From positions 24,342 through 88,341 of the IMG/VR virus record IMGVR_UViG_3300028030_000007: a stretch of DNA of 64,000 nucleotides; one strand, given 5' to 3'. Below, in pieces: positions 6,741-47,749 of this stretch. The notes under the pieces were generated by a model. It was not told the origin of the DNA. It searched no databases and worked only from the letters and a program-made list of their open reading frames with translations. The DNA is from a virus. How positions within the stretch are numbered: the first letter of the stretch is position 1; each line of letters begins with the position of its first letter. A program made the translations under genes and the position numbers.

Positions 6741-9700
6741 ATGGGTATCGGACCTTACACCACTTATGCTCCCCCTGGCGTATACACTAGAACGATTAAC
6801 GAACCAACCGGTGGAGTTTCTACCGGTGGAGTTAGAATCCCCGCTATCATCGGAACTTCTGTAGAATACATTTCACAGTATAACTATGAAATGATCAGAG
6901 GTTCCTCGTCTGTTGCAGATACTCAAGTTTTCAATGAAAACGTTGCATACAGATGGGTTACTGGCGGAACTGATGATAACCCAAAGTTTGGACAGCAAAA
7001 CGGATCACTCACTAAGTTTAGAGTGGCTAACTACCCGATCGTTGATGGTAACGGTTCTGGGACTGTGGCTATTAACTCTTCATCAATATCAGTCACTGTT
7101 AACGGTGAAGAAGTTCCGGTTCAATCAGTTAACGGTAGCTACGGAATAGTTTCCCTTGTTGCTCCTACTACGACTACTGATGAGGTTCTCGTAACTTATT
7201 ACTTTGATCGTAAAGATACCCAGATCACTGATGATGTATCTGACCAGGTTACGTCAGGTGTTGCTTCATTGACCTCTAGTAAAGCCGAGTCATACGAGAT
7301 AACTAGCGGTACGAATGAAAACCTCTACGTTAAGGTTGATGACACCACTGATGTTACGATACCGCTTACTGCTGGTACAAGATCTGCTCAACAGATCGTT
7401 GATGATATTAATCTAGTCTCAGCTACCACTGGGTTATCAGCAACCGTTCACTCTGATAATAACAATGAAAACAGAGTGAAGCTCGTTGCCACAAGTAATA
7501 TAGAAATTCTGAGCACGACCAATAATGCGGCTTTCGCACTTGGTTTCACCTCAGGTCAATATTCTGGCAGAAACCTCGTTTTCACTGTTTTCAACGGTCC
7601 GATCGTTGATGGTTCAGACGGTGGTATTACCACGACTGATCCGACTAAGGTCACAGTGACGATTAACGGATCCACTGTTGCAGCTTCTGAAGTTAACGGT
7701 TCTACTAGAGCGGTGACGCTACCCTACGCCCCGGCTTCCGGGTCTACGGTTAAAATTACCTATTACTTCAATACCTTCCAGGATACGTTTGACTATCTTC
7801 CAAATTCAAACATCCTTACTATCAACTCAGTAGGTATCGCTCCTGATAACACTGATTATACTGAGGGTAACGATTTTGTCATAGTTAATGATGGTGATCA
7901 GTCCTACATTAAGTGGGGGACTAGCGCTCTTGTTTTTGAGGGGACCACAACTGGAACCAAGCCTTTCAACACGCAAGAGACTATTAATCTTATCGATGAT
8001 AGAATCTACATGGAACAGTGCTCTGATTACACTGATCCATCAACGAATACGGTTTCATTGGTTAAGTTCTCTCTTCAGTCAATCCCCACTACCGGTAATG
8101 GAAGAGACACGGTACTTGATTCATCTACCTATAATTCAGTCTCGAATGGTAGAATTGGGCTGACGACTGATAATCCCGGTCTTATCAAGGCTTACGTCGG
8201 TAAAGATGTTATCGACGCGATGTCACGATCTAACGTGACAATTAAGAGTGTTGATGGGTCTAACGGGATCATTGAGCTTGTTGACGCCATACCGAGTGGT
8301 AGTAAGGTATTCGTTACTTACTGGTACAATAGAATATCTGACGATGAGTACACACTTACTTGTACTACGTCCGGAGCATCTGGTATTGGTAAATACAAGA
8401 TCACCGATAAGTCTGGTAACACGATATACACCACGAAGTTTGGTTCAAAGTCTGGAATGTCAAAGGATGTGAACTGGCCCTCCGGCGTTGAGTCAACCCC
8501 TGATGCGTTCCACTCTGGTGGGAACCCGGTGAATGAAACCGTTACGGTAACGTTCGATAACACGATTTATCCTGCTACTCACGCTACCATAACGACTGAT
8601 CCTGGTCCATTTGATATTTATTCAACAAAATCAATCTTCGGACCGATTCTTGTTGATAACGCTACGGTTGCTGGTGCTAATCTTGGACATGGATCAGTAG
8701 CTACATATATTGGTGATCTTGTTGATAACCCTGGATCAATGTCGTTCACTGCAAGTGACTATCTTTCAATAACAGTGGATAGCATTGATATCGATCCAAT
8801 AGCACTGTCATCAGCTACATCACTTGCAAATGTTGCTGCATTGATCGATACTGCCATTTCTAATGACACTCAGACTCATAGTGATGGATCCGACATTTTC
8901 GCTGCAGGAACTGTTGCAACATTAGTTACAGCGGTGAATGAGCTTAAAGCTAATTACAATCATCACGTGAGTAATGAGGATAATAGTGGTGGTCACGCTA
9001 CACCAGCAAATGATTATCATAACAACCTAGGAACTGCAATATCTACTGCAGATGCTACTGATTGGGCCACTGCTAAAGCTTTGATAGATGAAATAGCAAC
9101 GGCTTATGAGTTACATAGAGTTGATACTCCTACTTTGCATGCCGCAGCTGATAATACAAATAAATTGGATCTAACATTAACATCAGATACTCCATACGAT
9201 GCAGTTGACAAATTAAATGATATAATAAGTAAGTTTAATAGTCACATTTCAAATGATTCCGGTGTATCTGGTTATCATACAAATGCTGACACATTCAACG
9301 GAGTGATAACAACAGCGGTGTTTTCACCTAACAATCTTGTAGATAGCATTACTTATGGATCACAAGGATTCTTGGTGATCAAGAGCAATGAATCATCAGG
9401 ATCAGATTACTACGTTAACGTAAAAATTAATAAGCCATCAGGCAGTGGACAGTCAGATGCTTCTGCTAAGGTTGGACTTGACACTACCAGAGAAGCTAAC
9501 GCGTATGATTGGTTAGCAGTCGATTATCCTGCATTTGTTTACGGAACGAAAACCCCGAGCTTTAACATTCAGTCACTCGTTAGCGATTCACTGAGTCTTG
9601 GTATCGATGGACTTTCGTTCTCCGTTCCTCTTGTTACAGGATCAGCTAGATCGATAAGATCAGTTGTTGATAGGGTTAATGCATCATTTGTTGGTGCAAC

Positions 9701-11801
9701 TCAATCATCAACGATCCAATTGATGGCATTGTCCTCACTCATTCTTACATTAAACAATGTAAAGAGCGTATACAATGTGCATGAGGCTAGCGTAACATAT
9801 CATAATGCACCCGGTGGAACAAACCCGGTAACAGCTGCAAATGCCACTGATTTAGCTACATCTATTACGCTAGTTAATGACATCAAGTCTATGTTTAATA
9901 ATCATATAGTTGAAGCTGGCATTCACAAAACTGATGATTTGAACTCAATAACAACAGCTGATGCAACAGATCTTGGATCTGCTTGGCTGCTTGCCGCTGA
10001 AATAGTTGAATTATACAGTACACATATTGTATTAACAGTATATCATACTAATCCTGACACTACTGATGTCGTGTCTGTCTTCCTTGGTCAGTACGTAGCA
10101 GAAATTGGTGTACATGCTCATGATAACATGCTGAAATTAACATCACTAACGGATTCTGTTGAATCACAAGTTTATATCGGTAGTGGCCTAGCCAATGATG
10201 TCCTTGGTTTAACACAGGGTACTTATAGTAGACATCAACCTACTGCTGATGATATTATTAATTACCTTGATCCTAGTTCAAATATCATTTATCCTAGGGT
10301 TATACTTGGAACGAATGGCAAGTACATCGAGATTAACTCACTGACAACAGGAACATCATCGGCTCTCACCGTTAACTCTTTCGCTACATCAGCGTTCACC
10401 GATGAGTCCGGAATTGGATTCGTGCAAGGATCAACGAGTGATATTGGTGAAAACGCCACAATGGCCTACAACGTCGGATCATCTGACGCGGCACATGGGT
10501 CATCTGGTGTTGGCATTCCCGACCAGACTTACAAAGATGCAAGAACCGGTCTTACGTTTACCGTTCTCAAGCCTTCAACCGGTGATTACACGAACGGTGG
10601 ATCATTTACACTGATAGTGTCAGACACCGCTACTACTGACGCGGCGATCCCCGTTAAGTCAATTGCTGGTGTTGAGATGACGGTATCTGACACCACTGAT
10701 GTCGCGTTGAACTCAACGGCTATCGTTAAGACCTACAAGAAGAGTGGGTACGAGCCCGACATAGGCGATATTTACTACATCTCCTATGATTATGAAAAGA
10801 CTGACATGAGCCCGACTCTTGTTAATAGCACGAGCCAGATTCAATCTCAGTTCGGATCATCAGACACTACGAATCAACTTTCGTTAGCTGGTTCAATTGC
10901 TATGGCTAATGGGGCCGAATTAGTGGCGTTGGTTCAGGTTCAAAAATCGACCGGTTCAGAATCCGCTCCTTCAACGGCGTTCATGGCAGCGATCGATGAA
11001 CTTAACAAGCCGATCGATGGTTACAACAAGGTTGATGTGATCGTTCCTATGTCAACCGACACGTCGGTTTACAGTTACTTGAGCCGAAATTGTTCTGTGA
11101 TGTCATCGCCTAGAATGGCCAGTGAAAGAACCGGGATAATCGGCGTTGCAGCTGGAACCTCAGAATCAACAGTTAAGGCGCTTGCCAAGTCAATTAAGTC
11201 AGAGCTGATCACCCTGGTTTACCCGGACATGTTCATCGTAACCACTGTTGATTCCTATGGTAATCAAAGTGATAACCTAGTTGACGGAACTTACGCTGCT
11301 GTGGCAGTGGCTGGAATGTCCTGTAACCCACAGAATGACGTTGCCACACCGTGGACCAGGCAACGAATTTCTGGATTTAAGGGAATAGGAAGGTACATTG
11401 ATCAGGTTACTGCTAATAGCATAGCGGCAACCGGAATTACTGTTATCGAGGATAGCAGTAGCGGAATGATCATAAGGCATGGTCTTACGACTGATGTAAC
11501 TACTATTCTGACTAGAACTCCGACTGTTATCACGACGAAGCATTTCGTTCAGATTAAGCTGCGAGAAACCCTGGATCCTTACATAGGCTTGAAGCTTGAT
11601 GGATCGCTTCTGTCATCCGTTGATCGCTCAGTTAGGGATTTGTTTGAATACCTGATGTCGTCAAAGATCGTTAACACTACTGAGACGATAAACGTCGGTA
11701 TTGATGAATCGGACCCAACGATAATTATGGTTGAGGTGATATACTCACCTGTTCTTCCTGCTGAGTACATTGTTGCGACAATGCAGATTAAAACTAGGTA
11801 A
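6741..11801 (+). CDS. Contractile tail sheath protein, 1686 aa, with multiple inserted domains
   Basis: N-terminal YAPPGVYTRT...RIPAIIG. C-terminal sheath core: IQSQFG...LSLAGSIAMANGA, ERTGIIG, LITLVYPD, AAVAVAGMS...DVATPWTRQRISGF, IIRHGLTT, IYSPVLPAEYIVATM. AAGAGG Shine-Dalgarno. Confidence 0.9.
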   Translation: MGIGPYTTYAPPGVYTRTINEPTGGVSTGGVRIPAIIGTSVEYISQYNYEMIRGSSSVADTQVFNENVAYRWVTGGTDDNPKFGQQNGSLTKFRVANYPIVDGNGSGTVAINSSSISVTVNGEEVPVQSVNGSYGIVSLVAPTTTTDEVLVTYYFDRKDTQITDDVSDQVTSGVASLTSSKAESYEITSGTNENLYVKVDDTTDVTIPLTAGTRSAQQIVDDINLVSATTGLSATVHSDNNNENRVKLVATSNIEILSTTNNAAFALGFTSGQYSGRNLVFTVFNGPIVDGSDGGITTTDPTKVTVTINGSTVAASEVNGSTRAVTLPYAPASGSTVKITYYFNTFQDTFDYLPNSNILTINSVGIAPDNTDYTEGNDFVIVNDGDQSYIKWGTSALVFEGTTTGTKPFNTQETINLIDDRIYMEQCSDYTDPSTNTVSLVKFSLQSIPTTGNGRDTVLDSSTYNSVSNGRIGLTTDNPGLIKAYVGKDVIDAMSRSNVTIKSVDGSNGIIELVDAIPSGSKVFVTYWYNRISDDEYTLTCTTSGASGIGKYKITDKSGNTIYTTKFGSKSGMSKDVNWPSGVESTPDAFHSGGNPVNETVTVTFDNTIYPATHATITTDPGPFDIYSTKSIFGPILVDNATVAGANLGHGSVATYIGDLVDNPGSMSFTASDYLSITVDSIDIDPIALSSATSLANVAALIDTAISNDTQTHSDGSDIFAAGTVATLVTAVNELKANYNHHVSNEDNSGGHATPANDYHNNLGTAISTADATDWATAKALIDEIATAYELHRVDTPTLHAAADNTNKLDLTLTSDTPYDAVDKLNDIISKFNSHISNDSGVSGYHTNADTFNGVITTAVFSPNNLVDSITYGSQGFLVIKSNESSGSDYYVNVKINKPSGSGQSDASAKVGLDTTREANAYDWLAVDYPAFVYGTKTPSFNIQSLVSDSLSLGIDGLSFSVPLVTGSARSIRSVVDRVNASFVGATQSSTIQLMALSSLILTLNNVKSVYNVHEASVTYHNAPGGTNPVTAANATDLATSITLVNDIKSMFNNHIVEAGIHKTDDLNSITTADATDLGSAWLLAAEIVELYSTHIVLTVYHTNPDTTDVVSVFLGQYVAEIGVHAHDNMLKLTSLTDSVESQVYIGSGLANDVLGLTQGTYSRHQPTADDIINYLDPSSNIIYPRVILGTNGKYIEINSLTTGTSSALTVNSFATSAFTDESGIGFVQGSTSDIGENATMAYNVGSSDAAHGSSGVGIPDQTYKDARTGLTFTVLKPSTGDYTNGGSFTLIVSDTATTDAAIPVKSIAGVEMTVSDTTDVALNSTAIVKTYKKSGYEPDIGDIYYISYDYEKTDMSPTLVNSTSQIQSQFGSSDTTNQLSLAGSIAMANGAELVALVQVQKSTGSESAPSTAFMAAIDELNKPIDGYNKVDVIVPMSTDTSVYSYLSRNCSVMSSPRMASERTGIIGVAAGTSESTVKALAKSIKSELITLVYPDMFIVTTVDSYGNQSDNLVDGTYAAVAVAGMSCNPQNDVATPWTRQRISGFKGIGRYIDQVTANSIAATGITVIEDSSSGMIIRHGLTTDVTTILTRTPTVITTKHFVQIKLRETLDPYIGLKLDGSLLSSVDRSVRDLFEYLMSSKIVNTTETINVGIDESDPTIIMVEVIYSPVLPAEYIVATMQIKTR

Positions 11802-11814
11802 TAGAAAGTTAATC

Positions 11815-11853
11815 TACCCGGTTTAGTAGGAATTAAAACTACTAAACCGGGTA
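11815..11853. other. Perfect 15-bp inverted repeat just after the sheath stop (terminator, processing site or mRNA stabiliser)
   Basis: TACCCGGTTTAGTAG (11815-11829), 9-nt loop, CTACTAAACCGGGTA (11839-11853); no clear U-tract follows. Confidence 0.75.
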
Positions 11854-11887
11854 TGGTTATAAAGGCTATAACATTTCAGGAAATAAG

Positions 11888-12550: not shown

Positions 12551-12556
12551 ACTCTG

Positions 12557-21812: not shown

Positions 21813-24800
21813 ATGAATAGACCGTTCATATCGCTCGCTCCAGACGCCTACATATCACTTCAAGGAAGCACAGACACGGTAACGTGTGGGAAGTGTCAAG
21901 TAAAAGTAGACTTCAATAAATTTGTTACAAGTATATCAACAGATTGTGATGTAAACTCTCCTCCAGGGTCGGCATCCATACAGATGCAAATTCCTGATAC
22001 AGAACTAAATCAGTTCATGATTGATGATGAGTTTATAGTAAAACCTATGATGGAGATAGAAATATTTGGCAAGGGATACTATAGCATAGGTGGAACGCCA
22101 CGTTATTACAGGATCTTTTGGGGTCTTGTGATGAATATAAATAAAAGTTGGTCAAATGGCGTAACAAATATAAGTATATCATGTAGTGATATGTTAAAAT
22201 GGTGGGAACTTACATATGCTGTTATGAATCCTGCGTATATCACCCCAGAAGGATCATCGGCTGGAAACTTTCAATTTTGGGGTAACAAATTAGCGGGAAT
22301 GAACCCGTATGCTGTTATAATAGCCATGGCAAAAGATAGCATGAGCGATTTTTTGCTTACTACCGGATCTTTTACATCATATAAGCCTGAAATAGGTCCG
22401 GAAAAAAGAGCTATTGGCAAGTATATGCTTGAGGCCATGGAATATTGGCAACTTAAATTTGGAGAAATATGGAATAACCTGGTTCTTTATGGCGTATCCG
22501 GAACCCCATATCAATTTACTGATAGTATGATAGGTAGGTCGCCTGTTTTCCTATCAAAGAGTATATTTGAAAATGAAATGAGCCATACCCTTTTCAATAG
22601 AGAGACAACGCGATTTAGAATACAGCCTACGGAAGTAGCAGCGTATAAAAGAGAATTGGCTCGTGTTGTTGATATTAAATTTTTTCAACAAGAAGCTCAA
22701 ACCAAACTTCAAATAGCTCAAACGGCTCGCGATCAGATAATGTACGAATTTTATCAGGATCCAAATGGGACAATAATATTTAAACCACCGTTTTATAACA
22801 TGAACGTAATACCGAATAAACCAGTATCATGGATCAATGATTTCGAAATAATGCAGGAACAAATAACAGAGTCAGGAAATGAGGTATATACACATGTTAC
22901 GTCAAATGGTCATGCATTTGGCGGAATTATGGATTATGGGATGAATGATGAAATTTTGACACCAAATACAGGAGTGATCGATTATCATCTTCTAAAACAA
23001 TTTGGGTGGAGAAAGACTAACGTAGTTTGTGAGTGGTGTGGAAATCCAAGAAAACTTTTCTATTATCTACTAGATTATTTGGATCGCCAAAATTCAAAGA
23101 GAGTTTCCGGATCTTTTACTATTCCGATGAGACCTGAACTTCGACCCGGTTTTCCAATATGGGTTCCTTCGCATGATGCATTTTATTACATACGATCGAT
23201 TTCTCATGCTTATTCTATAGGTGGACAGGCTACTACTACAATAAACGTGATAGCTAAGAGGGGTAAATTTATAGCGCCTAAAAATATAGGAATGATGACA
23301 TCACACGTTATTCATAAACCTCCAGAGAAAAAACTTAGCAGAAGAGAGGAAATGGAAAAGGCCAAAAGGGAAAAACAAAAAACAAATAGGATGTCCGGCA
23401 ATAAATATTTTGCATATAATAAGGAAAAACAAAGAAAAGCTAGGTGGGCGAAAGAAAAGCATGAAGCTAGAGGAAATAATCTAGCATTTAAAATTACGTT
23501 TCCTGAAGACGTTGGATCATCGATCGGTTTCACATCTGGAGACAAATCATCTGGTGACGCTAACGCTCCCATGATAATAAGGGATCCTGAAACCGGAAAG
23601 ATAATGGGATATCCGAATGTTGTTATGGTATATAGAAGGTCGCTTGACAATGTAAGAAGAGCCAGACTAAAAGAAGAAACACAGCTTAAAACATACGGAA
23701 AAAGTGCTAAATTTAAGGGACAGAAAAAGTATTCATTACCAAATTATACATATGACGCTACTGTTGGTAGAACAGCCAGAATGATAGCAACAGATAAAAA
23801 AGAAAAAATAGTAGAACAGTTAAGAAATAATAGATATGAAATAGGGTTTGATAATTCAGGACTCTATGATTATGCAGTTGATAAATCAAAGATCATAAAT
23901 GAAATCACAGTAGTTAACGCTTCATCAGTTACATGGGGTGATGAAAGTGCGGCTCCTCAGGGATATTCATCATATAGTGATCCAAAATTAAAGGAGATGA
24001 AGGAGAAACTATCAAAAAGAAAGAACGATATAATACAAGAGATTAAACTAGCTAAAAAACAAAAATCCGCACTTGAAAAACAAAAATCTAAGGCATACAG
24101 AAATCTAGCAATAGTAAAGGGTAAATGGAAAGGCTTACGTGATGAGAAAAAAATTGCGGAAAAACCAGATGTTAAAAAAGCTAGTGAAGATGTTAAATCA
24201 ATAAGTGATAAAACAAATGATATAAATGATAAATTAATAAAACTAAAAGAAGAATATAGTGACATAATGTTTAGCTTAAGTAACGTGGGTTATGGAGCTA
24301 AAGATATAAACATAGTGATAAGACCAGTTTCGGATGAATTTGGATTCGAGGTTATAGGACATAATAGATACGGAAGAGGATCATTCATAGATATAGGCAG
24401 ACTTCGCGTTGAAAGTTTGGATGAAAGTAATGGATCTAGCAAGCCAAGTACGGAAGAAGTGAATAATATTAGAATACAATTTGCAGCCGGATCATCCATG
24501 GCTAGTATGTCAGATCCCATGACGTCCCATAATTTTTCCGCTGTTAAATCGGCTGAAATGTTGAATGAACTTCAACCATCAGATTACAAAACAGGGGCGT
24601 CAGCGTACTCTGGAGATAAGATAAACTTCACAAATAGCAGAACGTACACAGATCAAATAAACAGAGAGCGAACGTACGCCGGTAAAGTTATCTATGCAGA
24701 CGTTGACTCAATAATGAAAGCTAAGGGCTTAGATCAACTAAAACCGACAATAAATAAAGATATTTATATGACAGCCGATTGTGATTGTGGGATGATGAAG

Positions 24801-25142
24801 AGAGGTATTCTTGACATATTGCCCAAGTCAACGATAAAACAAATCTTGACTAGAAAACCAGAACTTAACGATAGTGCGATAAAAAGTTTGAAAGCAGAAA
24901 AAGAACAGCTTAAAAAAGAACTTGAAGATGCAAGAATAGAGGGTTGTATAATTGAAGATGGTGGAGTTGAAGATGCGTGTACAATAATAGAAAAACAAAT
25001 AGCGATAATAGATAAAAAGATAAGAGATAACACCACACAAAGTGTAACGTCAGCAGTAGTGACACAGAAGAGTTTCGTGGACGCGATCAATGAACATCTA
25101 ACGCGCGTTCTAGAACAAGCAGCGAAAAAGGCTAATAAATGA
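21813..25142 (+). CDS. Baseplate hub protein (gp27/VgrG-like) with long coiled-coil insertions
   Basis: PGSASIQM...PMMEIEIFGKG...FWGLV...ISCSDMLKWW; YEFYQDPNGTIIFKPPFYN; FGWR; GSFTIPMRPELRPGFPI...YYIRSISH. Confidence 0.8.
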   Translation: MNRPFISLAPDAYISLQGSTDTVTCGKCQVKVDFNKFVTSISTDCDVNSPPGSASIQMQIPDTELNQFMIDDEFIVKPMMEIEIFGKGYYSIGGTPRYYRIFWGLVMNINKSWSNGVTNISISCSDMLKWWELTYAVMNPAYITPEGSSAGNFQFWGNKLAGMNPYAVIIAMAKDSMSDFLLTTGSFTSYKPEIGPEKRAIGKYMLEAMEYWQLKFGEIWNNLVLYGVSGTPYQFTDSMIGRSPVFLSKSIFENEMSHTLFNRETTRFRIQPTEVAAYKRELARVVDIKFFQQEAQTKLQIAQTARDQIMYEFYQDPNGTIIFKPPFYNMNVIPNKPVSWINDFEIMQEQITESGNEVYTHVTSNGHAFGGIMDYGMNDEILTPNTGVIDYHLLKQFGWRKTNVVCEWCGNPRKLFYYLLDYLDRQNSKRVSGSFTIPMRPELRPGFPIWVPSHDAFYYIRSISHAYSIGGQATTTINVIAKRGKFIAPKNIGMMTSHVIHKPPEKKLSRREEMEKAKREKQKTNRMSGNKYFAYNKEKQRKARWAKEKHEARGNNLAFKITFPEDVGSSIGFTSGDKSSGDANAPMIIRDPETGKIMGYPNVVMVYRRSLDNVRRARLKEETQLKTYGKSAKFKGQKKYSLPNYTYDATVGRTARMIATDKKEKIVEQLRNNRYEIGFDNSGLYDYAVDKSKIINEITVVNASSVTWGDESAAPQGYSSYSDPKLKEMKEKLSKRKNDIIQEIKLAKKQKSALEKQKSKAYRNLAIVKGKWKGLRDEKKIAEKPDVKKASEDVKSISDKTNDINDKLIKLKEEYSDIMFSLSNVGYGAKDINIVIRPVSDEFGFEVIGHNRYGRGSFIDIGRLRVESLDESNGSSKPSTEEVNNIRIQFAAGSSMASMSDPMTSHNFSAVKSAEMLNELQPSDYKTGASAYSGDKINFTNSRTYTDQINRERTYAGKVIYADVDSIMKAKGLDQLKPTINKDIYMTADCDCGMMKRGILDILPKSTIKQILTRKPELNDSAIKSLKAEKEQLKKELEDARIEGCIIEDGGVEDACTIIEKQIAIIDKKIRDNTTQSVTSAVVTQKSFVDAINEHLTRVLEQAAKKANK

Positions 25143-26422
25143 AGAAAAACTACGTGATCGATACTAACGTTCTTATTCATGACCCTGACTGTATATACAA
25201 ATTTGAAGATAATAACGTATACATACCGATATACGTTATTGAAGAAGTAGATAATTTCAAAAAAGAGTCTTCTGAGAGAGGAAGAAATGCAAGAAGGGTA
25301 ATACGGATCATAGATGGTATGTTATCATCGAATGATAGACTAGAAAACGTTAGTATAAATGATGGACAACTTTTCCTTTATGTTCCTGATTTTCTAAATT
25401 TCGATACAAAGGTTGCTGTAGACAGTAATAAATATGACTATAGAATATTACAAACTGCTATTGAAATAAAACAAAAATCAGATTTGAAAACCATAATGGT
25501 ATCTATGGACGCTAATCTAAGGGTTAGAGCCCAAGCTATGAAACTTCCATCACAGAATTATAAAAATAACTCTGTTAGTGTGAATTCAATAAAGAAAGAT
25601 TATGAAATACACTATGTTGATGATAATACAATAGATCTTCTTTACTCAAAACAAACAGTTAACATTCCCTCATTGCAATTAAAAAACAATGAGTATGTAA
25701 AACTCATATCATCAGAAAACGGATCTAAAACGGTCCTTTGTAGAAATCTTCCTGGGGGACAATTATCAAGAATACAAACAAGTTCCGAAATTTGTGGAAT
25801 AAAACCACTTAATATGGAACAACATTTTGCACTTGACGCTTTGCTAGATCCGGCGGTAAACTTTGTAACGCTGATAGGGAAAGCTGGAACAGGAAAGACG
25901 TTGTTGGCTCTAGCTGCAGCTTTTCAAGGTGTAAAAAGAAAGCAATATACATCAATACTCGTAGCACGACCGGTAATCCCTATGGGTAAAGATATAGGAT
26001 ACATACCGGGGGATATCAATGAAAAAATGCAGCCGTGGATGCAGCCTATTTATGATAACATTGACATATTATCTATGAATGATAATGAAGACTATAATTT
26101 GTATTTCAATGATGGAACGATAAAAATAGAGCCTCTTACCTATATAAGAGGTAGAAGTATACCGAATCAATACATGATAATAGATGAGTCACAGAATCTT
26201 ACCCCTCATGAGGTAAAAACAATACTAACTAGGGCTGGTGATGGGACTAAAATAGTTCTTACCGGCGATCCAAATCAGATAGACAACCCATACATGGATT
26301 CAACATCAAACGGTCTTTCCGTTACGATGAAAAAGTTTTTAGGGAATGAAATATTTGCTAGTGTCGTTTTGCATAAGAGTGAAAGAAGTAAACTAGCCGA
26401 TATTGCCGCTTCCATTCTCTAA
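25139..26422 (+). CDS. phoH: PhoH-family protein with N-terminal PIN domain (PhoH2/YlaK type)
   Basis: PIN YVIDTNVLIHDP; Walker A GKAGTGKT; DIGYIPGDINEKMQPW; YIRGRS; IIDESQN; LTGDPNQID; SERS. Confidence 0.95.
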   Translation: MKKNYVIDTNVLIHDPDCIYKFEDNNVYIPIYVIEEVDNFKKESSERGRNARRVIRIIDGMLSSNDRLENVSINDGQLFLYVPDFLNFDTKVAVDSNKYDYRILQTAIEIKQKSDLKTIMVSMDANLRVRAQAMKLPSQNYKNNSVSVNSIKKDYEIHYVDDNTIDLLYSKQTVNIPSLQLKNNEYVKLISSENGSKTVLCRNLPGGQLSRIQTSSEICGIKPLNMEQHFALDALLDPAVNFVTLIGKAGTGKTLLALAAAFQGVKRKQYTSILVARPVIPMGKDIGYIPGDINEKMQPWMQPIYDNIDILSMNDNEDYNLYFNDGTIKIEPLTYIRGRSIPNQYMIIDESQNLTPHEVKTILTRAGDGTKIVLTGDPNQIDNPYMDSTSNGLSVTMKKFLGNEIFASVVLHKSERSKLADIAASIL

Positions 26423-38597: not shown

Positions 38598-41500
38598 ATG
38601 GCTTCTACTCCTGTTGTATCAGTTTTTGATAATAATTATGTGGAAAGCTTGAGCTTTTACACGAATAGCCAGGATGTGTTCATTCATGGAATCATAGATA
38701 GTAATGCTGTTGATGTACAAGTTTCAATAGATGGAGGTCAATACACATCAGACAGTTCATTAGTTAAAATTGATGGAACGTCAATCACGGTTCCTAACCC
38801 AGATAGTTTCCAAGATGGCTATGAACTTCATGACGGGTCGAATGAGATAAAAATAAGGTCAATAGACATAAACGGATCTGCGAGTCAAGCGGCTGTTGTG
38901 TCTATCAATTATATATCATCATCCCCTACCATGTATTACCCACCGTCTGGTGTTTATGTAAAAAGGAATTCGAATGACGTTGAGGTTTTCTGGTCAATAA
39001 CTGGAAACGTATCAAAACTTGTCGGGTTTAACGTCTATGCGTCAACATTGCCCGGTGGGCTAGGTTCTGGATATTTGAAACTTAATCTAAACACCGTACC
39101 TAGTGATTCAATATATGATACTAAAGCACAATATGATGAAATAGACTCAATATCATACACTAGTATTGACACTACTAACGGATATTTAAATATAAAATCA
39201 TCAGTTAGTAGCCTGATTAATCCAACAAATGAAACTACAAAAACAATAAATTCTATAGATGTATTGGATTATAGCGCTGTAAAACTTGACGTTACTGTAT
39301 CTGAAACTACGCTAACTAACGTATATAGATTTGTCCATGATAGGTCTGGTCTTGCGTCAAAAGGGATCTTAAACAGTGACACGTTTGACGCCGTTAACAC
39401 TGAGGATGATATATACTATGTTGTTACGGCACTATATAAGGATTCAAATAATAACGTGTATGAAAGCGCATACTCTATCGAAATATCAGGGAAACCACTT
39501 AATATGGACTCAACGATAGTTGGTATAGACATAAGATCCGATAGTGATATATCGACTAGCTACATTCAATATATTCAATCAACGAATCCAGAACTTTCAT
39601 TGATTCCCGGATCGACGATAAGAGAGATTCACATTGAACCGTTGGCTAATGAGGTTCAAAAAGTTTATTTCCTGGCTGACTTCGTTCATCGATCGAAATC
39701 ATTCCATGCTTTACTTCAGATTGATGATCCGAATAGAACAGGGCAGTCAATACCGGTCGATAACTCACAGTATAAGATAAGTTTAAGGAACGCTCTTAAC
39801 ACATCAGATAACGTAGCGGTTCAAACTTTGATAGACGCGGCGTTTTCTTCCCTATCAGAAAACTTCGGAGTGACAAGGGGTGGCAAGACCGCCGCGTCTG
39901 TTATCCAAACGTTTTACACTACCACAAGACCCACGAAAGATATCAAAATATCCGTTGATACGATAGTCGGTTCATCGTCATCACCACAGTCCCCTAGATT
40001 CTATTCTAAGGGAGTGTACTATATGTATTATTCAGATATTGATAGCTATTATAATTCTGATGAAGATAGATATGAAATCGATGTTGAAATGTACGCGGAG
40101 TGGCCGGGATCATCTGGGAACCTGCCAGCCGGTGCCATAGACTCAGTGCTGTCGAATGATATCGGTTTTAAGACCGTGAATAAAAACGCGGCGTATGGCG
40201 GCGCAGATGAGATGACAAACACGCAGCTCGCTGAAGCGGCCATGAGAAAGCTAACGTCCCTTGATACCGGCACTATAGGCGGGTATATGGACACCGCCGC
40301 GTCTGTTCCTGGAGTGACTGACGTGATAGTCGTAGAGTCCGGAAGCGACTATATGATGCGTGATTGGGATGAAGTTAGGGGAAAACACATTGGAGGGAAA
40401 GTCGATGTGTACGTTCGCGGGTCAATAGATAGAACGATCACCCAAATGTTCGCGTTCAAGTCCATGGAGGCTAAGTCCATGAGGTTTGACGTGATCGACC
40501 CGGTAAATCTTATCTTTAGATCATTCGATACTAACTTAAACTCTAATAATACAATAGTAAAACTAATTAGTCTAACAAATAACACAGTATCATCTAGTTA
40601 TGATATAGTTGGATACAAGATACTTGACTACAATACTATCCAACTATCGAGCACTGTGTCTCAACCAGTCACCACAGTGGATGATTTTGTTGTTGGCAAT
40701 TACCTATATAGTGTAAATAAATATATTCCAACTATTCAGCCTATCGAAAGAATAGTGTCACTTACTGGTGAGATCACCGGTCAATTGGAAGAGGATATTG
40801 ATTATAAGCTATATAAATCAGAGGATCTGCTTCTTTTGGGTGGTAGTACGAAAGCGTCAGACTACGTTTCTGTTACGAATTTGAATTCCCAGCAAATTCA
40901 CGTATCTGACGAGAGCCACGTTCTCGTCGATTTGTTTGAACAACCGTTAGGGAAGGTTGGTGTAGACGTTTCTTCTGTTGTTGTGACAGATTCTGGGTCG
41001 ATCACCACATACAAGGGATACGGTTATCCAGACCCGGATTATGAGGTCGATGATACAGGGAATCGAGTAACAATAAGAAGAACGGTCGGGTCTGCTATAC
41101 CGAATGGGTCTACTGTTTTAATATCATATGACTATAATGAAAACTTTGTTATCGAATACGTAGTTAACGATGTTGTTCAACGAGTGGATGATGAGATACA
41201 GAAAATGCGTCATACAACAGCGGATGTTGTAGTAAAGTCGGCGTTTGAAAACTATGTGGATCTGGCTTGCACTGTCATTTTGCGCCAGGGAGCTTCAAAA
41301 TCTGAGGTCGATAGTCAGATAAGAACTGAGCTTACAACACTTTCTACGTCAAGAAAAATCGGTGAGCCAATATATCAATCAGACATTATAGGACGTATGG
41401 AAAACGTTACCGGTGTTGACTTTATCGTCCAACCACTGCAAAGATTTACGTTAGGCGATGGATCGATGAGATTCATGGAAACCGTCATGGAAACCATGAT

Positions 41501-41882
41501 CTACATACCTCAACTTTCTAAATATAACAATAAAGTTTATATGTCATCGGAGCCACTTATATATTCAACCGTTGAGTATGGGTCAAATGATGGACAATTC
41601 TCGGCGGTTTATGTTGATGATATCATGATGACAATGGTAACTAATCTTAATAAAATAGGAGAGAGTAACAAAAATTGCTATATCTCCGGTAGTGATGGTG
41701 TTACTATAAGTGGATACTCAGGTGATACATCAAACAGAGCGTTCATATCAATAAATGACGATGATGAGCACGAATACAGATGTACATATGTCATATACGG
41801 TGATACACAAACCATAGACATAGACACATCAGATATGGAGTACATAGTGCCAGGTAATGTATCGATTACCTATACATACTAA
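38598..41882 (+). CDS. Baseplate J / gp6-like wedge protein with N-terminal Ig/Fn3-like domains
   Basis: LIPGSTIREIHIEP, LSENFGVTR, PGSSGNLPAGAI, VNKNAAYGGADEMTN, GTIGGY...VPGVTDV, GGKVDVYVRG, IGEPIYQSDII...VTGVD. Confidence 0.85.
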   Translation: MASTPVVSVFDNNYVESLSFYTNSQDVFIHGIIDSNAVDVQVSIDGGQYTSDSSLVKIDGTSITVPNPDSFQDGYELHDGSNEIKIRSIDINGSASQAAVVSINYISSSPTMYYPPSGVYVKRNSNDVEVFWSITGNVSKLVGFNVYASTLPGGLGSGYLKLNLNTVPSDSIYDTKAQYDEIDSISYTSIDTTNGYLNIKSSVSSLINPTNETTKTINSIDVLDYSAVKLDVTVSETTLTNVYRFVHDRSGLASKGILNSDTFDAVNTEDDIYYVVTALYKDSNNNVYESAYSIEISGKPLNMDSTIVGIDIRSDSDISTSYIQYIQSTNPELSLIPGSTIREIHIEPLANEVQKVYFLADFVHRSKSFHALLQIDDPNRTGQSIPVDNSQYKISLRNALNTSDNVAVQTLIDAAFSSLSENFGVTRGGKTAASVIQTFYTTTRPTKDIKISVDTIVGSSSSPQSPRFYSKGVYYMYYSDIDSYYNSDEDRYEIDVEMYAEWPGSSGNLPAGAIDSVLSNDIGFKTVNKNAAYGGADEMTNTQLAEAAMRKLTSLDTGTIGGYMDTAASVPGVTDVIVVESGSDYMMRDWDEVRGKHIGGKVDVYVRGSIDRTITQMFAFKSMEAKSMRFDVIDPVNLIFRSFDTNLNSNNTIVKLISLTNNTVSSSYDIVGYKILDYNTIQLSSTVSQPVTTVDDFVVGNYLYSVNKYIPTIQPIERIVSLTGEITGQLEEDIDYKLYKSEDLLLLGGSTKASDYVSVTNLNSQQIHVSDESHVLVDLFEQPLGKVGVDVSSVVVTDSGSITTYKGYGYPDPDYEVDDTGNRVTIRRTVGSAIPNGSTVLISYDYNENFVIEYVVNDVVQRVDDEIQKMRHTTADVVVKSAFENYVDLACTVILRQGASKSEVDSQIRTELTTLSTSRKIGEPIYQSDIIGRMENVTGVDFIVQPLQRFTLGDGSMRFMETVMETMIYIPQLSKYNNKVYMSSEPLIYSTVEYGSNDGQFSAVYVDDIMMTMVTNLNKIGESNKNCYISGSDGVTISGYSGDTSNRAFISINDDDEHEYRCTYVIYGDTQTIDIDTSDMEYIVPGNVSITYTY

Positions 41883-41901: not shown

Positions 41902-41905
41902 TTGT

Positions 41906-44900
41906 ATGGCTAGCTCATATGATATAATGTCCATGTCGGACAGAACAATATTTGTAAATGAAGGAACGATAGTTAAAAAATCAGAGGCTATAATAACAGG
42001 ATCATCGTTTGATATAGTAAGCCCAAATACAATCGATCTTAATACAACCGTGGGTAGTGTTGACGGTTATTCAATATATATAGCTACGTTAGGCGAAACA
42101 GAAATCCTAGCCGCTTCTGGTAGTCAGTTAATACTAGATACAATACTAAATATAACCGATGAATATGCTACCCAATCTAACCTAATAAATAGCACAAATT
42201 CCCTTGTAAATTGTTTAAACTATCACTTAAATGACATCTCGTCCCATGATAATACATGTGATAGCATATCAGGAACATGTAATAGTTTATCGACATGCGT
42301 CACTCTGTTAGGTCAGATTCAACAGGCTCTAATAGATCATATAAACAATAAGAATTGTGAGTGTCATTGTGTCGTATCAACAATCCCTGTTTTCAACTCG
42401 ATACAACCTACCCTAAATTCCTGTGAATATGCATATAAGGAAACGTTGAAAGCTATAAACGACCACTTGGACGATTCAACGTGCCATCTGTTTCTTGACA
42501 CGACAGCACACACATACTTAGTTGATTACTCTCACGTGAACGTAACGTCCATGTCTCACAACTGGACGATCTACAATATGCACACCGGACAATGGGCGGA
42601 CAGCCCATCGGACGTCACGGTAAAGATAAACGGAACTGAGGTTACAGCCCAGTATGTGTTTGGGAAGATAGGGGCCGTTGTTCTTCCCTCAAAGCCTGCT
42701 CCTACAGATACGGTAACGATTACATACTGGTATTTAGTTAACGGCGGTTCCTACCTTCAAACATGTGAATGGGAATCGCAGACCAATCAGTGGGAAAACT
42801 TCGCCAAATCTGGAATTCCATCCCATAAATACAGACTCCGTGGATACTTAGTTGATCCGTCAAATAAAACAGAACTGTTGGCATCACCGATTGAGCCAAC
42901 ATCCGTTGGATGGAAATACAAAGCGATAGAAAAAGAATACGCGGCTGTTTTGAATGATCCAACATCTCTCATTCAAAACATGTGGGACGGTGCTTATACG
43001 GCTTTGGATGAAACTATAAAAGAGTACACAACAAAGGTCAACAATAAAACAACGTCCGGTGATTATAAAACTATAAATCTGCCTATTTACACCGATAGCG
43101 TAGTGTCAGTAGCGTGGAGAAATCGAATAACCTCGGTTAATCTTACCGGTGATTTTACAGGGGTGTCAGTTCTTGTAGTAAATGAGAGTCGATGCGCACT
43201 GTTTGGATATTTACAGGCAGAGCCTAGTAACCTAAAAACAGCAATAAGGACGGCTAATGATATAAAACACGCATTTAATGCGCACATTCTTGAGTCGGAC
43301 TCGCACAAAAAAGTAGACACCACTGATACGTTAATTTATGCTGACGCTAGTGATCTAGACTCTCTTGTTCGTCTTGTCGATGAACTTACAACAAAACTAC
43401 CAGCGCACTCAATTAACACAGATTATCATGTAAACGCGGATCCCACTCCAACGTCTTATGGACCGGTAACGGATCTGCAGTCATCTATAGACAACCTGGT
43501 GCTACTTCGATCAAGATTCAATGATCATATGTCGGTGAATCTTGTTCACATAGTTCAACCAATTACAGGTCAAGTTGATAAACCGACTTCAATCGGTATG
43601 TTAACAAATAAAGATCGTCTAGAGTATTCAGACGGATGGGACTTGTATCCCATTGATTTTGATGAAGAGACATCATTTCGTACATATAGCATAGATGGAA
43701 AAATATATCTATATAAATCCGGTGATACACAACCTATAATTTCAGGAAACATTAATACAGATATTTCAGATATCCCGATACAACTCGATGAACTACATCA
43801 GTTAGTATATGGATCAATCATGGGATCTTCTGTGTCGGAGTGGACGTTGGTAATGACTAACGTAAACCCGGTAGTAGATACCAACATACTAAAGACTAAA
43901 TCCGTTACATACGATGGTAGCATTAAACCACAAGAAAGCGATCCTCCGTGGTTTAACTTTGGACATTCTGATCATATCATAGATTCCAGTGAATTATCAA
44001 TTCTAAACTCTTATATAGATGAAAATCTTGACCTAACATCTTATGGATACTTCAGCGGTTATTATCGATTTGAACCAATAATAAATGAAAAGGCAAACGT
44101 AGCCATAGAAGCTGAAATCTCAGTTCCATGGAACGCTTCAGGAATCAGTAATAAATCAAACGGACTGTATATAAACAATCGTGACATCTATACATCACTT
44201 AACTTCTTATATTATGACCCAATTTCAGCGTCAGTAACAGGAACGGTCCCTAGCTCTTCATTTATAAATGTTAGCACATATGACAAACTATCAATTAGGA
44301 TCGATGATTCATATATAGTAGACATAGTAAATGGTGGCCCGGCAATAACATCGTTAACTAGTCTAGTTAGTTTTATAAACTCTGAATACGGTGACACGAT
44401 AGCGTATTCAAAAACTGTTGGGGCTAACACATACTTAAACATTAGATCGACCACAAAAGGGCACAACTCTAGAGTTTCAATATATCAAAGTGAAATAGCG
44501 TCGAAAACTGGTCTTGCCGTTGGTGATTATTATGGACAAGACTTTGAGACTATCCCACAATTTTCATACTCACCGTTTAAACTACCAACAGATCTTGGAT
44601 GGACTAAAAACGGGTCTCAACAGTCATACGTTAGATCTGAGTCCTTAGTATTGAATGACACATCAGATTCCGACTATATTAGCTATGCTAACTATATCCC
44701 AACACAAGTAGATAATATATTTGAAAGTAATATATCATGGTCTATAGGATTCATGATAAACATTGAATCGTATACAGCTGGCGACACTGTAGCTCCCGGT
44801 GAAGATCTTCTCGGTCCGATCGTATCGATAGATGAAGGCTCGTCCGGAATAACCGTTGATTTTGCGTTTACTACAAACGGTCTTTCCATTCTATCATATA

Positions 44901-47749
44901 ATAGCGCGACAAGTTCTGTTGATTATATAGGAACAATAACAGCGGACGTGACAAATGGATTTCATTCAATTGAAATCATGTCCAATAAATCATCACATAT
45001 AATCTTAATAATAATAGACGGTGTTGCATCAGCTCCGTTACCACTATGGTTATTAAATAGTGGGGTTGGTCCAAGAATGATATCGTTCGGTAGCGGAATG
45101 TCAACTATTGGCGGTATTGATTTCAGTAAATCAAAATCCGTGTCAAAATTTAGAAGTATATACGCATTCGATAACACTAACTTTGCGTACTCAAGTTATG
45201 TGGATAAACTTTACGTCGGGCTATATAAAGGCGGAAATCCGTCATATCTAGATTCATATCATTACATGAAATTTGACTATACGTCAAATCATACGTATAG
45301 ATTAGTCTTGTCACCAATAAAGACAGTTGATTTGTTCATTGACGGATCTGACGTCCCCTCACTCTCCATACAGTATGATAAAATATCATTCACACCATCC
45401 AAGTACGGAATACTAAACTTTGTATCTGGAGTGGATAGATATGTTGCGTTTGGATCATTTGACAACACAACAGTATCAAAAATGGTGGTATCTAGCGTCA
45501 AATACTCTGTCGGAATACTTAATGATTATAACTTCACACCACAAAGAGATCATTTACTAAATTATGCTAACATTATAACATCTCCTGACCATCTGTTTAC
45601 TACAGTATCACACGGTCATTACAACACAAGCATAATATCAAACGGAACTCCATCGGATGAGTTTTTATCTGATAATAGTGTAGATTCCTATATAAATTTG
45701 ATGAAAGGAACACCAATAATAGAAAAAACTCAAAGTCTTGAGTATAGAGGTGGGTTAAAAAAGACAGTAACAAAAACATCAAGTGCACTACCTGAAAACT
45801 TTATCTACAGTGGCGGGTACATACGAAACTTTGTTAATGATTCGTCAACGGTAAGTTGTACAATAGACACCGTTTCTAACGTTCAAACGTCTCTCCAATC
45901 AGAGGCTAATGCATTGAAAGCCGCATATAACATTCATATACCAGATACAACCTATCATAATGTAGCTGACGGCCTTAATAGCATAACATCCCCTAATAGC
46001 ACAAATCTAGCTAGTTTAATAACACTATTGAATGAGATGAAGGGTGATATTAATAATCATATATCAGATACAACTTATCATTATTTTATAGATAGCATAT
46101 CAATTACAAGCCCGAACGCTACTGATTTGTTGTCATGTATAACACTATTCAATGATATAAATGAGGTTTATACACGTCACATAGACTCCGGTAAAGTGCA
46201 TAATTATGATGACATTTCAGACACAATAACAACTCCTAACGCGACATCAGTTCAAGAGGCGGCTGTTTTAGTGCAGTCGATGCTAATTCCGTTTAGATAT
46301 CACGGTGATGAAACCTTAACCGGTTTCGCGTGGCACCACAAGCAAAAAGATTTAAACACCGGAATCGGTAATAGCATAATCGGTCTTGGACAATTTAGAG
46401 TGTACTCTACGTCACATCTTGATATGATATATGTTTATGAAATGAATCTGGATGTTGGTGATGTTATCAGACCGATAGATGGTGTAAACGCTGGCACTAC
46501 ATTTACTATATCACAAGTTATTGACGCTAGCGCGCGTCTGTATAGACTATCATCAAGTATGGTGCATGAAGCTTCAAATAGATATTTTGAGATATACAGT
46601 GGGTCTGTTTCATCTATACAGAAATCGTCTATTATTACCATATTGAAAAAATTGATCAAGGCTTATGATGACCATTATATCAATGAAAATTATCATTATA
46701 ACCCACACGGAATCCATGTAGATGACATTGATTTTATAACAGACTCGGACATCATAAATAAATCGAACGAGCTTAAATACGCGTTTAATGAACACCTACT
46801 ATATAATCTAGAGCATAAACAAAAAGACACTACTAACGTAGGGTCGTCCATAGTATTCAATGATCCTGTTCAAAACGGTATTGATTGTGCGAATTCCCTT
46901 AAAACCGTGTTTAATGAACATTTAGGGAACACAAATTCTCACGTTTTATCTGATTATGTGAATGTCATTGATGACACATGCACAAGTTCTAACTTCATAT
47001 CATTTGTAAACAATTTCAAGAAGTTACATAACCAGCATTTATCACAAGTCATAGATGAATCGAATGTTCACGTAACGAATGACACGACGAACATCATATC
47101 AACCGTAGATGCGACAGATAATGATACCGCACTAACATTACTTAATGATGTATATCACAAATTACTGACGCACTTCACACAATCAGGTGTCCATGGATCG
47201 TCAGTGTTTATCAGTTACTCACTGCCATCAAGAATACTGTATGATAGAATAAAAATATGGGAAAAGGAAACCGGTGACGGAGCCGATTTGTCAACAATAA
47301 GCGATGATGACACACTATACATGAATGGACAGTTCTTTAATACAACACAGACTGTTACTTATGGAATATATGAAGGTGCGGATTTTAACACTGAGTTCGA
47401 ATACTCAGATGATCATGGTGCGTATACATATGATCATAAAATACAATCAACATCATCATTTGAATTTACTGTTGTGGTGTCACCAGATGAATCTGAACTT
47501 GAGTATGGGTTCACGATGGATAATGGGAAGTTCATTAAGTTAAAGTTAGGTATCACACAGTTGGAAATTCCTGTTGTAAGATTACTTGACGCCAATGATA
47601 AAATATTGTATGAAGAAGTGTTTGAATGGTGGATGGGTACTTATATATATACAATAGATTATAATAGTAATGATAATACAATAGGCTTAACAATAAATAA
47701 ATCTTATGGTGATGACGGTGGTAAAGGTGATGACGGTGGTGGAAAATGA
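41906..47749 (+). CDS. Very large tail fibre or baseplate protein (1947 aa) with 15 H-x6-H helical repeats and lectin-like beta domains
   Basis: Follows baseplate J and shares beta-sandwich and His-repeat modules with the sheath. Exact role unknown. Confidence 0.65.
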   Translation: MASSYDIMSMSDRTIFVNEGTIVKKSEAIITGSSFDIVSPNTIDLNTTVGSVDGYSIYIATLGETEILAASGSQLILDTILNITDEYATQSNLINSTNSLVNCLNYHLNDISSHDNTCDSISGTCNSLSTCVTLLGQIQQALIDHINNKNCECHCVVSTIPVFNSIQPTLNSCEYAYKETLKAINDHLDDSTCHLFLDTTAHTYLVDYSHVNVTSMSHNWTIYNMHTGQWADSPSDVTVKINGTEVTAQYVFGKIGAVVLPSKPAPTDTVTITYWYLVNGGSYLQTCEWESQTNQWENFAKSGIPSHKYRLRGYLVDPSNKTELLASPIEPTSVGWKYKAIEKEYAAVLNDPTSLIQNMWDGAYTALDETIKEYTTKVNNKTTSGDYKTINLPIYTDSVVSVAWRNRITSVNLTGDFTGVSVLVVNESRCALFGYLQAEPSNLKTAIRTANDIKHAFNAHILESDSHKKVDTTDTLIYADASDLDSLVRLVDELTTKLPAHSINTDYHVNADPTPTSYGPVTDLQSSIDNLVLLRSRFNDHMSVNLVHIVQPITGQVDKPTSIGMLTNKDRLEYSDGWDLYPIDFDEETSFRTYSIDGKIYLYKSGDTQPIISGNINTDISDIPIQLDELHQLVYGSIMGSSVSEWTLVMTNVNPVVDTNILKTKSVTYDGSIKPQESDPPWFNFGHSDHIIDSSELSILNSYIDENLDLTSYGYFSGYYRFEPIINEKANVAIEAEISVPWNASGISNKSNGLYINNRDIYTSLNFLYYDPISASVTGTVPSSSFINVSTYDKLSIRIDDSYIVDIVNGGPAITSLTSLVSFINSEYGDTIAYSKTVGANTYLNIRSTTKGHNSRVSIYQSEIASKTGLAVGDYYGQDFETIPQFSYSPFKLPTDLGWTKNGSQQSYVRSESLVLNDTSDSDYISYANYIPTQVDNIFESNISWSIGFMINIESYTAGDTVAPGEDLLGPIVSIDEGSSGITVDFAFTTNGLSILSYNSATSSVDYIGTITADVTNGFHSIEIMSNKSSHIILIIIDGVASAPLPLWLLNSGVGPRMISFGSGMSTIGGIDFSKSKSVSKFRSIYAFDNTNFAYSSYVDKLYVGLYKGGNPSYLDSYHYMKFDYTSNHTYRLVLSPIKTVDLFIDGSDVPSLSIQYDKISFTPSKYGILNFVSGVDRYVAFGSFDNTTVSKMVVSSVKYSVGILNDYNFTPQRDHLLNYANIITSPDHLFTTVSHGHYNTSIISNGTPSDEFLSDNSVDSYINLMKGTPIIEKTQSLEYRGGLKKTVTKTSSALPENFIYSGGYIRNFVNDSSTVSCTIDTVSNVQTSLQSEANALKAAYNIHIPDTTYHNVADGLNSITSPNSTNLASLITLLNEMKGDINNHISDTTYHYFIDSISITSPNATDLLSCITLFNDINEVYTRHIDSGKVHNYDDISDTITTPNATSVQEAAVLVQSMLIPFRYHGDETLTGFAWHHKQKDLNTGIGNSIIGLGQFRVYSTSHLDMIYVYEMNLDVGDVIRPIDGVNAGTTFTISQVIDASARLYRLSSSMVHEASNRYFEIYSGSVSSIQKSSIITILKKLIKAYDDHYINENYHYNPHGIHVDDIDFITDSDIINKSNELKYAFNEHLLYNLEHKQKDTTNVGSSIVFNDPVQNGIDCANSLKTVFNEHLGNTNSHVLSDYVNVIDDTCTSSNFISFVNNFKKLHNQHLSQVIDESNVHVTNDTTNIISTVDATDNDTALTLLNDVYHKLLTHFTQSGVHGSSVFISYSLPSRILYDRIKIWEKETGDGADLSTISDDDTLYMNGQFFNTTQTVTYGIYEGADFNTEFEYSDDHGAYTYDHKIQSTSSFEFTVVVSPDESELEYGFTMDNGKFIKLKLGITQLEIPVVRLLDANDKILYEEVFEWWMGTYIYTIDYNSNDNTIGLTINKSYGDDGGKGDDGGGK

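Follow-up and report, generated by a model that had tools for sequence, protein, structure and literature searches.

Tandem three-unit repeats with paired histidines in the tail sheath and a second large protein of an uncultured huge phage: a candidate six-histidine surface-decoration module

Results

The repeat unit and its two carrier proteins

The DNA analysed here is a stretch of 64,000 nucleotides (hereafter the window; positions 24,342 to 88,341 of the IMG/VR virus record IMGVR_UViG_3300028030_000007), and our subject is a repeat unit of about 41 amino acids, marked by a pair of histidines, that recurs in two of the encoded proteins: a tail sheath protein of 1686 residues and a protein of 1947 residues encoded further downstream. 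The IMG/VR contig behind the window measures 88 kb at an estimated completeness of about 20%, and is consequently a fragment of the genome of a huge phage. A sequence-only reading of the window had picked out 21 such units in clusters of 3, 3, 3, 3 and 9, and had proposed that three consecutive units build an intrachain pseudo-trimeric helix bundle with a six-histidine metal site. From the 21 units we built a hidden Markov model (HMM), and its scan of the six-frame translation of the window placed every unit where that reading had seen it, six in the sheath and 15 in the 1947-residue protein, with E-values per unit of 1e-7 to 3e-14. Significant units were confined to these two open reading frames (ORFs), and outside them no match in the window was better than E 0.036. 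Translation, a listing of the histidine pairs and a MAFFT alignment agree with the HMM, and the two histidines, His1 and His2, form the only invariant columns among the 21 units (Table 1).

Two details of the earlier description had to be adjusted. The spacing H-x6-H does not extend to the first unit of the first sheath triplet (S1), in which the loop between His1 and His2 is lengthened, either to H-x9-H or, by triplet alignment, to a far longer gap that ends at a 'DYH'; the second sheath triplet (S2) shows the regular pairs H1014/H1021, H1055/H1062 and H1095/H1102. The largest cluster does hold nine units in total, but these do not form a single array, as an insert of about 79 residues in the connector after unit 4 divides them into 4 + 5. 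The insert appears beta-rich by eye.

Conservation across the family follows the same pattern as in the window. Among 158 homologous proteins, His1 is present in 1349 of 1355 units and His2 in all 1207 units whose alignment extends to that column. His2 opens the unit tail H-x3-D-x2-N, the Asp of which (His2+4) accounts for about 99% and the Asn (His2+7) for about 93% of the aligned residues. Hydrophobic core positions are conserved to 50-80%, and thus less than either histidine. A rough family consensus reads [VI]-T-A-A-D-A-T-D-L-A-[ST]-A-I-T-L-A-N-E-L-K-A-x-Y-N-A-H-x4-G-V-H-x3-D-x2-N.

The first triplet of the 1947-residue protein (F1) is rich in cysteine, with about 10 residues of which several adjoin His2 (CECH, STCH). 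F1 is orthologous across its family and keeps all six histidines; cysteines are almost absent from the first triplet of 16 members. Those of the window copy could be extra ligands or could form disulfides.

Table 1. Genes, unit clusters and insert in the window (aa, amino acids; E, E-values, for clusters given unit by unit).
Feature	Position in window	Strand	Description
Tail sheath gene	6741..11801	+	1686 aa; PHROG 2839 'tail sheath', E 2.5e-27, aa 1336-1683
Sheath triplet S1	8889-9299	+	aa 717-853; 3 units, 6 motif His; E 1.9e-9, 5.1e-11, 7.3e-11
Sheath triplet S2	9705-10070	+	aa 989-1110; 3 units; E 1.3e-11, 1.2e-13, 3.7e-13
Baseplate wedge subunit gene	38598..41882	+	PHROG 6, E 1.3e-24; directly upstream of the 1947-aa ORF
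1947-aa protein	41906..47749	+	15 units; no Pfam or PHROG family matched
Triplet F1, 1947-aa protein	42149-42511	+	aa 82-202; E 1.4e-7, 1.6e-10, 1.6e-10
Triplet F2, 1947-aa protein	43211-43570	+	aa 436-555; E 1.4e-12, 1.2e-11, 2.7e-10
Nine-unit array, units 1-4	45857-46360	+	aa 1318-1485; E 5.8e-11, 2.9e-14, 2.5e-12, 4.6e-9
Non-repeat insert, about 79 aa	46361-46597	+	aa 1486-1564; gap between HMM units, in the connector after unit 4
Nine-unit array, units 5-9	46598-47215	+	aa 1565-1770; E 2.4e-11, 1.5e-11, 8.7e-12, 3.7e-9, 3.2e-9

The sheath ORF belongs to its family by virtue of a C-terminal sheath core domain (PHROG 2839) that covers only the last 350 residues or so; about 1300 extra residues precede it, and both triplets sit in this region of surface insertions. 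Two homologues, P0013 and P0008, gave weak matches to PF17482 (Phage_sheath_1C) below the Pfam cut-off. The GC content at third codon positions is lower in the triplet-coding parts of the gene (8874-10115; 0.21 and 0.27) than in its N-terminal (0.38) and C-terminal (0.44) parts, which could mean that the insert was acquired later. Since the gene for a baseplate wedge subunit lies directly upstream of that for the 1947-residue protein, we place the latter in the baseplate or fibre module, and its position suggests a baseplate-linked or fibre protein. Its relatives are proteins of 1800-2600 residues from contigs of huge phages, with a common 3 + 3 + n architecture.

Several further features of the two proteins and their surroundings were recorded. 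Both proteins share a second module, a beta-type motif of about 40 residues (V-x-V-x-x-N-G-...-V-x-(V/I)-T-Y-(Y/W)-(Y/F)), with two copies in the N-terminal insertion of the sheath (7086-7205, from residue 116; 7650-7769, from residue 304), a looser third sheath copy read by eye near residues 500-530, and one copy in the 1947-residue protein (42614-42733, from residue 237). Within the same N-terminal insertion of the sheath, residues 200-251 (7338-7493) match the flagellin hook IN motif PF07196 below threshold (E 7e-4; 20.1 bits, where the cut-off is 22.7), and weak DUF2460 and E1_FCCH-type Pfam matches occur in the window sheath and in homologous sheaths. A gene for a PhoH-like ATPase (25139-26422; PHROG 2765, E 2.9e-103) lies between the sheath and baseplate genes, surrounded by large ORFs without annotation, and the ORF at 49594-50181, a short way downstream of the tail module, weakly matches an RNA polymerase sigma factor (PHROG 1740, E 8.5e-5).

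Unit counts in homologous proteins

When the 158 homologous proteins were re-scanned for units with an iterated HMM, the totals proved divisible by three in 122 of them, where one third would be expected (binomial p = 1.7e-29). The copy number in multiples of three, which the sequence-only reading had put forward, is therefore far beyond chance. In a set of separately fetched IMG/VR viral contigs, 75 of 80 ORFs carry 3, 6, 9, 12, 15 or 21 units. Sheath-sized relatives (1560-1760 residues) have either 3 or 6 units, and the relatives of the 1947-residue protein (P0003-P0036) mostly total 9, 12, 15, 18, 21 or 27, with some at 13, 16, 17, 19 or 20. The commonest size of a contiguous cluster is three (155 of 375 clusters; 156 when defined by the spacing of His1), followed by 1, 2 and 6. 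Clusters that are split by an insert, such as 4+5, 4+2 and 1+5, add up to multiples of three, and the 4+5 or 4+2 division seen in the window was found again in homologues (e.g., P0006, P0017, P0025 and P0009).

The claim that the units always occur in threes thus holds as a strong rule, but not as an absolute one, given that proteins with 4 or 7 units exist. In carriers of this kind (L023 5962-6522, L077 3108-4169, P0126 and P0122) the first unit is atypical and consists of a long N-terminal helix; we read them as 1+3 and 1+6. The extra N-terminal helix or unit of small carriers might serve in trimerization between chains and in anchoring to the capsid. Such an element would also be able to trimerize if the bundles were intermolecular, with one unit contributed by each of three chains as in ordinary trimeric fibres, and many phage fibres are indeed homotrimeric (PMC6116203). 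An arrangement of this type would not, however, demand that the count per chain be divisible by three, and the module is carried by sheath and tube subunits, which are not in trimers. We therefore consider intermolecular bundles very improbable.

Apparent permutation of the terminal segments

Many of 30 aligned small three-unit proteins begin with the segment V-H-x3-D-x2-N-x-V-x2-A-D-A-T-D ahead of helix 1, and the proteins with this leading segment terminate just behind the Y-N-A-H of helix 3. In the triplets of the sheath the arrangement is the opposite, with a trailing segment and without a leading one. A survey of 156 isolated triplets found only the trailing His2 segment in 115, only the leading one in 19, both in 14 and neither in 8, so that 134 of the 156 (86%) have three helices, the same number of return segments and six histidines, no more and no fewer. 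This choice of one or the other segment resembles what circular permutation would produce in a closed three-fold domain, and it fits a groove between helix 3 and helix 1 into which either chain end can be placed. Although the argument is indirect, we regard the permutation as the strongest of its kind for a joint requirement of all six histidines.

Distribution of the module

A profile of the units, searched against 1.84 billion representative proteins, matched 1306 protein clusters (50% identity) at E <= 1e-3 and 653 at E <= 1e-10; nearly all of the 1306 stem from uncultured phages. Among 50,697 GenBank phage records, tblastn with the window triplet gave no match, and with the consensus-like small homologue P0122 a single one, to an uncultured Caudoviricetes record. 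Across 185,579 genomes of prokaryotic species only 9 loci were found, all of them in metagenome-assembled genomes.

The host proteins of the unit are diverse. Pfam searches with 82 carriers detected C-terminal sheath domains, one tail tube (Phage_tube_2), Big_5 and the C-terminal domain of a K1-lyase. Genes for proteins of about 175 residues with one triplet each follow immediately on that for the major head protein, within terminase-portal-head gene blocks. The designation as a tail module accordingly stands as far as occurrence in tails is concerned (sheath, tube and spike), but restriction to the tail does not, in view of these three-unit proteins right after the gene for the major head protein. 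The module is thus probably a mobile surface-decoration unit of uncultured tailed phages. The carrier with a K1-lyase domain brings to mind a catalytic metal centre, for instance in a small hydrolase or depolymerase module. This notion is hardly credible, however, as neither Pfam nor NCBIfam matched an enzyme family, as the domain comprises only about 120 residues without an evident pocket, and as up to 27 units occur per protein, a number expected of structural modules.

Searches for known families and structures

Consistent with the earlier statement that the unit is not a named domain, Pfam, NCBIfam and PDB sequence searches were all negative. The two window proteins and four homologues gave no Pfam match to Phage_head_fibr (PF11133) at E <= 1, the isolated triplets matched no Pfam family at E <= 1, and a further 82 homologues yielded no Pfam family for the repeat and no PF11133 match at E <= 0.001. 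NCBIfam contained no meaningful match to the repeat. The best PDB hits of the unit profile and of a profile of the small proteins had E-values of 0.014 and 0.11, respectively, and were unrelated proteins. At the level of structure, Foldseek returned no match at E <= 0.001 from PDB and BFVD, and the ESM Atlas returned unnamed viral clusters only. Word searches of the literature for H-x6-H motifs or pseudo-trimeric histidine bundles in fibres found no relevant work.

Structure predictions for isolated triplets

An AlphaFold2 model of sheath residues 985-1125, which comprise S2, was computed with the six triplets of the window as the input alignment. It reached a predicted local distance difference test score (pLDDT) of 85.7 and a predicted template modelling score (pTM) of 0.83, with helices at 2-32, 54-72 and 94-113, and with each His1 in the final turn of its helix. 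The stretch that follows helix 3 was still modelled with confidence (pLDDT of 89 and 78 in the next two blocks of 10 residues). A second AlphaFold2 model, of the small homologue P0122 from an alignment of 30 sequences, attained a pLDDT of 82.1 and a pTM of 0.66 and contains a 46-residue N-terminal helix; here, in keeping with the permutation, the leading segment is the confident one (pLDDT 73-93), and the score of the chain after helix 3 falls from 73 to 50. Both models show three helices of 19-31 residues joined by non-helical connectors of about 21 residues, modelled as coil and without beta-sheet.

In the VIA-wide fold search, the single-chain construct gp41-5 was among the top two neighbours of each model (Z 7.6 and 7.0), and for the P0122 model only, the BARA domain (3vp7_A; Z 6.6, 115 residues aligned, root-mean-square deviation 3.4) and the Beclin-1 ECD (4ddp_A; Z 5.5) were listed as well. 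No entry for the phi29 head fibre was among the matches listed by Foldseek and VIA-wide for either model. As for the proposed intrachain pseudo-trimeric helix bundle, what the predictions bear out is the triplet of three helices, at the pLDDT given above for S2 and with weak fold neighbours that possess a parallel core or three-fold repeats.

Heptad periodicity of the consensus would assign L9, A/L/V16 and Y/F23 to 'a' positions and A/L12, L/I19 and His1 (position 26) to 'd' positions, so that His1 would face the core from the final helical turn. Because near-identical units need equivalent environments and the connectors span the length of a helix, the models would best be read as a parallel three-helix core accompanied by three antiparallel return segments.

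Discussion

A proposed closed domain of three units

The data presented here lend themselves to the following structural proposal. Three consecutive units of about 41 residues would form a small, closed, single-chain domain with internal three-fold pseudo-symmetry, in which three parallel helices build the core and three extended return segments occupy the grooves, much like a single-chain version of the six-element bundle of a trimeric coiled coil. Each helix would end with His1 at a core-facing 'd' position, and each return segment would start with His2 followed by x3-D-x2-N, so that the six histidines would gather at one end of the bundle, most likely around one metal ion, with the conserved Asp and Asn as potential second-shell partners of the site. 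Support is good for the pseudo-trimeric architecture and for the rule of three, and the claim of a distinct fold and module appears highly probable to us. What the data show directly are the repeat, its occurrence in threes, its distribution, the proteins that carry it and the secondary structure predicted for it. We infer the parallel packing, the convergence of the histidines, the metal and the role; the explanation as a whole, a closed three-unit domain with a six-histidine metal site that acts as a decoration module of the virion surface, is in our estimate moderately probable.

A number of points weigh against this proposal. The spacing of about 41 residues is uniform in arrays of 6, 9 and 12 units, without any mark at the triplet borders (p = 0.61), and the lag-3 similarity in long arrays is raised only marginally; closed triplets inside long arrays are consequently not proven. 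The small carriers with 4 or 7 units are exceptions to the rule of three. The VIA-wide Z scores of 6.6-7.6 are weak and lie inside the range that the tool itself states for chance matches of helical models. AlphaFold2 does not model metals, and the convergence of the histidines goes beyond the models. Finally, the conservation of the histidines was taken from the 150 best profile matches, a sample biased toward canonical units, and rare units that lack a histidine occur in homologues.

The uniform spacing across triplet borders is also what an open helical solenoid or rope would show, and it keeps this alternative alive for the long arrays. The stem of the phi29 head fibre is a regular helix-turn-helix supercoil (PMC6116203), and the threes would then reflect the duplication of blocks or three units per superhelical turn. 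Homologues of our two proteins, among them the small head-adjacent ones, weakly match the PHROG 'head fiber protein' families 6994 and 20838 with E-values of 1e-3 to 1.4e-8, the match to PHROG 6994 being short and partial (about 30 of 67 profile positions); the two window proteins themselves have no such PHROG match, and the Pfam family Phage_head_fibr was not matched. Moreover, isolated triplets are by far the commonest clusters and singles and pairs mostly pair up across inserts, the choice between a leading and a trailing segment fits closure of the domain, and a lone triplet was modelled as a compact body at the pTM reported for S2. Taken together, we regard an open solenoid as improbable, and we continue with the closed three-unit domain.

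A putative six-histidine metal site

In the trimeric fibres and spikes of phages, six histidines from three HxH motifs coordinate Fe or Zn octahedrally (PMC6116203). Such His6 sites with octahedrally bound Fe, assembled from the HxH motifs of a homotrimer, are present in T4 gp37, P2 gpV, phi92 and R-pyocin (PMC6116203), and the background on homotrimeric needles and spikes on which the sequence-only reading had drawn is correct in this respect (PMC6116203). The site envisaged here would be their intrachain counterpart. We consider the binding of a metal by the module to be plausible and rather more probable than improbable, on the strength of the conservation of the histidines, their heptad position and a count of six that survives permutation. 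The scavenging of iron, the mimicry of receptors and the binding of minerals, which the sequence-only reading had also named, are purely speculative.

The same closed fold might, alternatively, do without a metal. The histidines, Asp and Asn could form a buried network of hydrogen bonds or helix caps, or a pH-sensitive latch that loosens upon protonation. His2 belongs to a more extended conserved turn (H-x3-D-x2-N) that may be purely structural, and the exchanges to Cys, Asp or Glu that are typical of metal ligands were not seen at the histidine columns. A pH switch is suggested by analogy alone, in that the nearest fold, gp41-5, is the core of a viral fusion protein. Yet the near-100% invariance of the histidines exceeds that of the hydrophobic core and is more ligand-like than packing would require, the count of six is kept through permutation, and extracellular phage fibres and spikes have repeatedly made use of His6 metal sites (PMC6116203). 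A metal-free cluster thus seems unlikely, if less so than the other alternatives, and a metal-bound site is the reading that we prefer.

The module would be a portable, autonomously folding unit of virion surfaces, found in sheath, tail tube, baseplate or fibre, and spike proteins as well as in small head-adjacent proteins, and it would probably serve as a decoration or spacer knob stiffened by the metal, possibly an adhesive one like the Ig-like decorations of other phages. The phage studied here would possess two such domains per sheath subunit and five per copy of its 1947-residue, presumably baseplate-linked protein. That this amounts to a natural single-chain, pseudo-three-fold helical domain with an octahedral His6 centre, without a solved relative and present in hundreds of sheath copies, so that the tail would be studded with metal, is a tentative picture for which we see slightly less than balanced prospects.

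A large family of phage virion parts has thus come to light that has no entry in Pfam, NCBIfam or PDB and hardly occurs in cultured phages; it consequently escapes the annotation and structure libraries now in use. The module can be used as a marker domain in the annotation of surface-exposed proteins in the genomes of huge phages, and it comes with a structural rule: its copy number is quantised in threes, and six invariant histidines survive circular permutation. Should the metal site prove true, phages would have arrived a second time at the His6 site known from trimeric fibres, now within a single chain; the presence of such a site in sheath and tube subunits, which are not arranged in trimers, would thereby be accounted for, and protein engineers would gain a compact natural scaffold with a buried hexa-histidine metal centre.

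Comparison with known systems

The closest parallels to the proposed site are the His6 sites of T4 gp37 and gp12, P2 gpV, phi92 gp138, the R-pyocin fibre and PA0616. These too lie in extracellular proteins of the virion, and each of three elements related by symmetry supplies two of their six histidines. In the gp37/gpV type, the metal is a structural one on the three-fold axis (PMC6116203). There, however, the histidines belong to HxH motifs in beta structure and the ligands come from three chains, whereas the module combines the end of a helix with a loop (H-x6-H, longer in a few units) and draws on the tandem repeats of one chain, the intrachain packing of which is suggested by the AlphaFold2 models.

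With regard to architecture, the proposed fold of the module would resemble the BARA domain of Vps30/Atg6 and the Beclin-1 ECD in its internal three-fold pseudo-symmetry, and gp41-5 in its parallel helix core with antiparallel outer elements. Sequence identities of 6-10% and the lack of a histidine cluster in these proteins make this an analogy of architecture only; furthermore, BARA is built from three repeats of a beta-sheet plus helix, in contrast to the connectors of the module, which are modelled as coil.

The head fibre protein gp8.5 of phi29, the stem of which is a three-stranded supercoil, has in common with the module a helix-plus-turn repeat in an appendage of the virion, and the small homologues of the module are encoded after the gene for the major head protein. 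Different from it, gp8.5 (PF11133) shows no Pfam or PDB sequence match to the module. It is a homotrimer and, to our knowledge, lacks the signature of paired histidines.

As decorations, the Ig-like, FN3 and BACON domains offer a likeness: they are small autonomous modules that, in variable copy number, are inserted in or appended to proteins of the head, tube, sheath and fibres in phages that are not related, and Fraser et al. in 2006 reportedly described them in phage capsid, tube and sheath proteins. These domains are beta-sandwiches, whereas the module is helical, comes in threes and bears an invariant histidine signature.

Among designed proteins, finally, the TRI and CoilSer parallel three-stranded coiled coils bind Zn on their axis through three histidines in the core of the heptad. 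They are products of de novo design with an intermolecular site of three histidines; the module, in contrast, is natural and single-chained and offers six.

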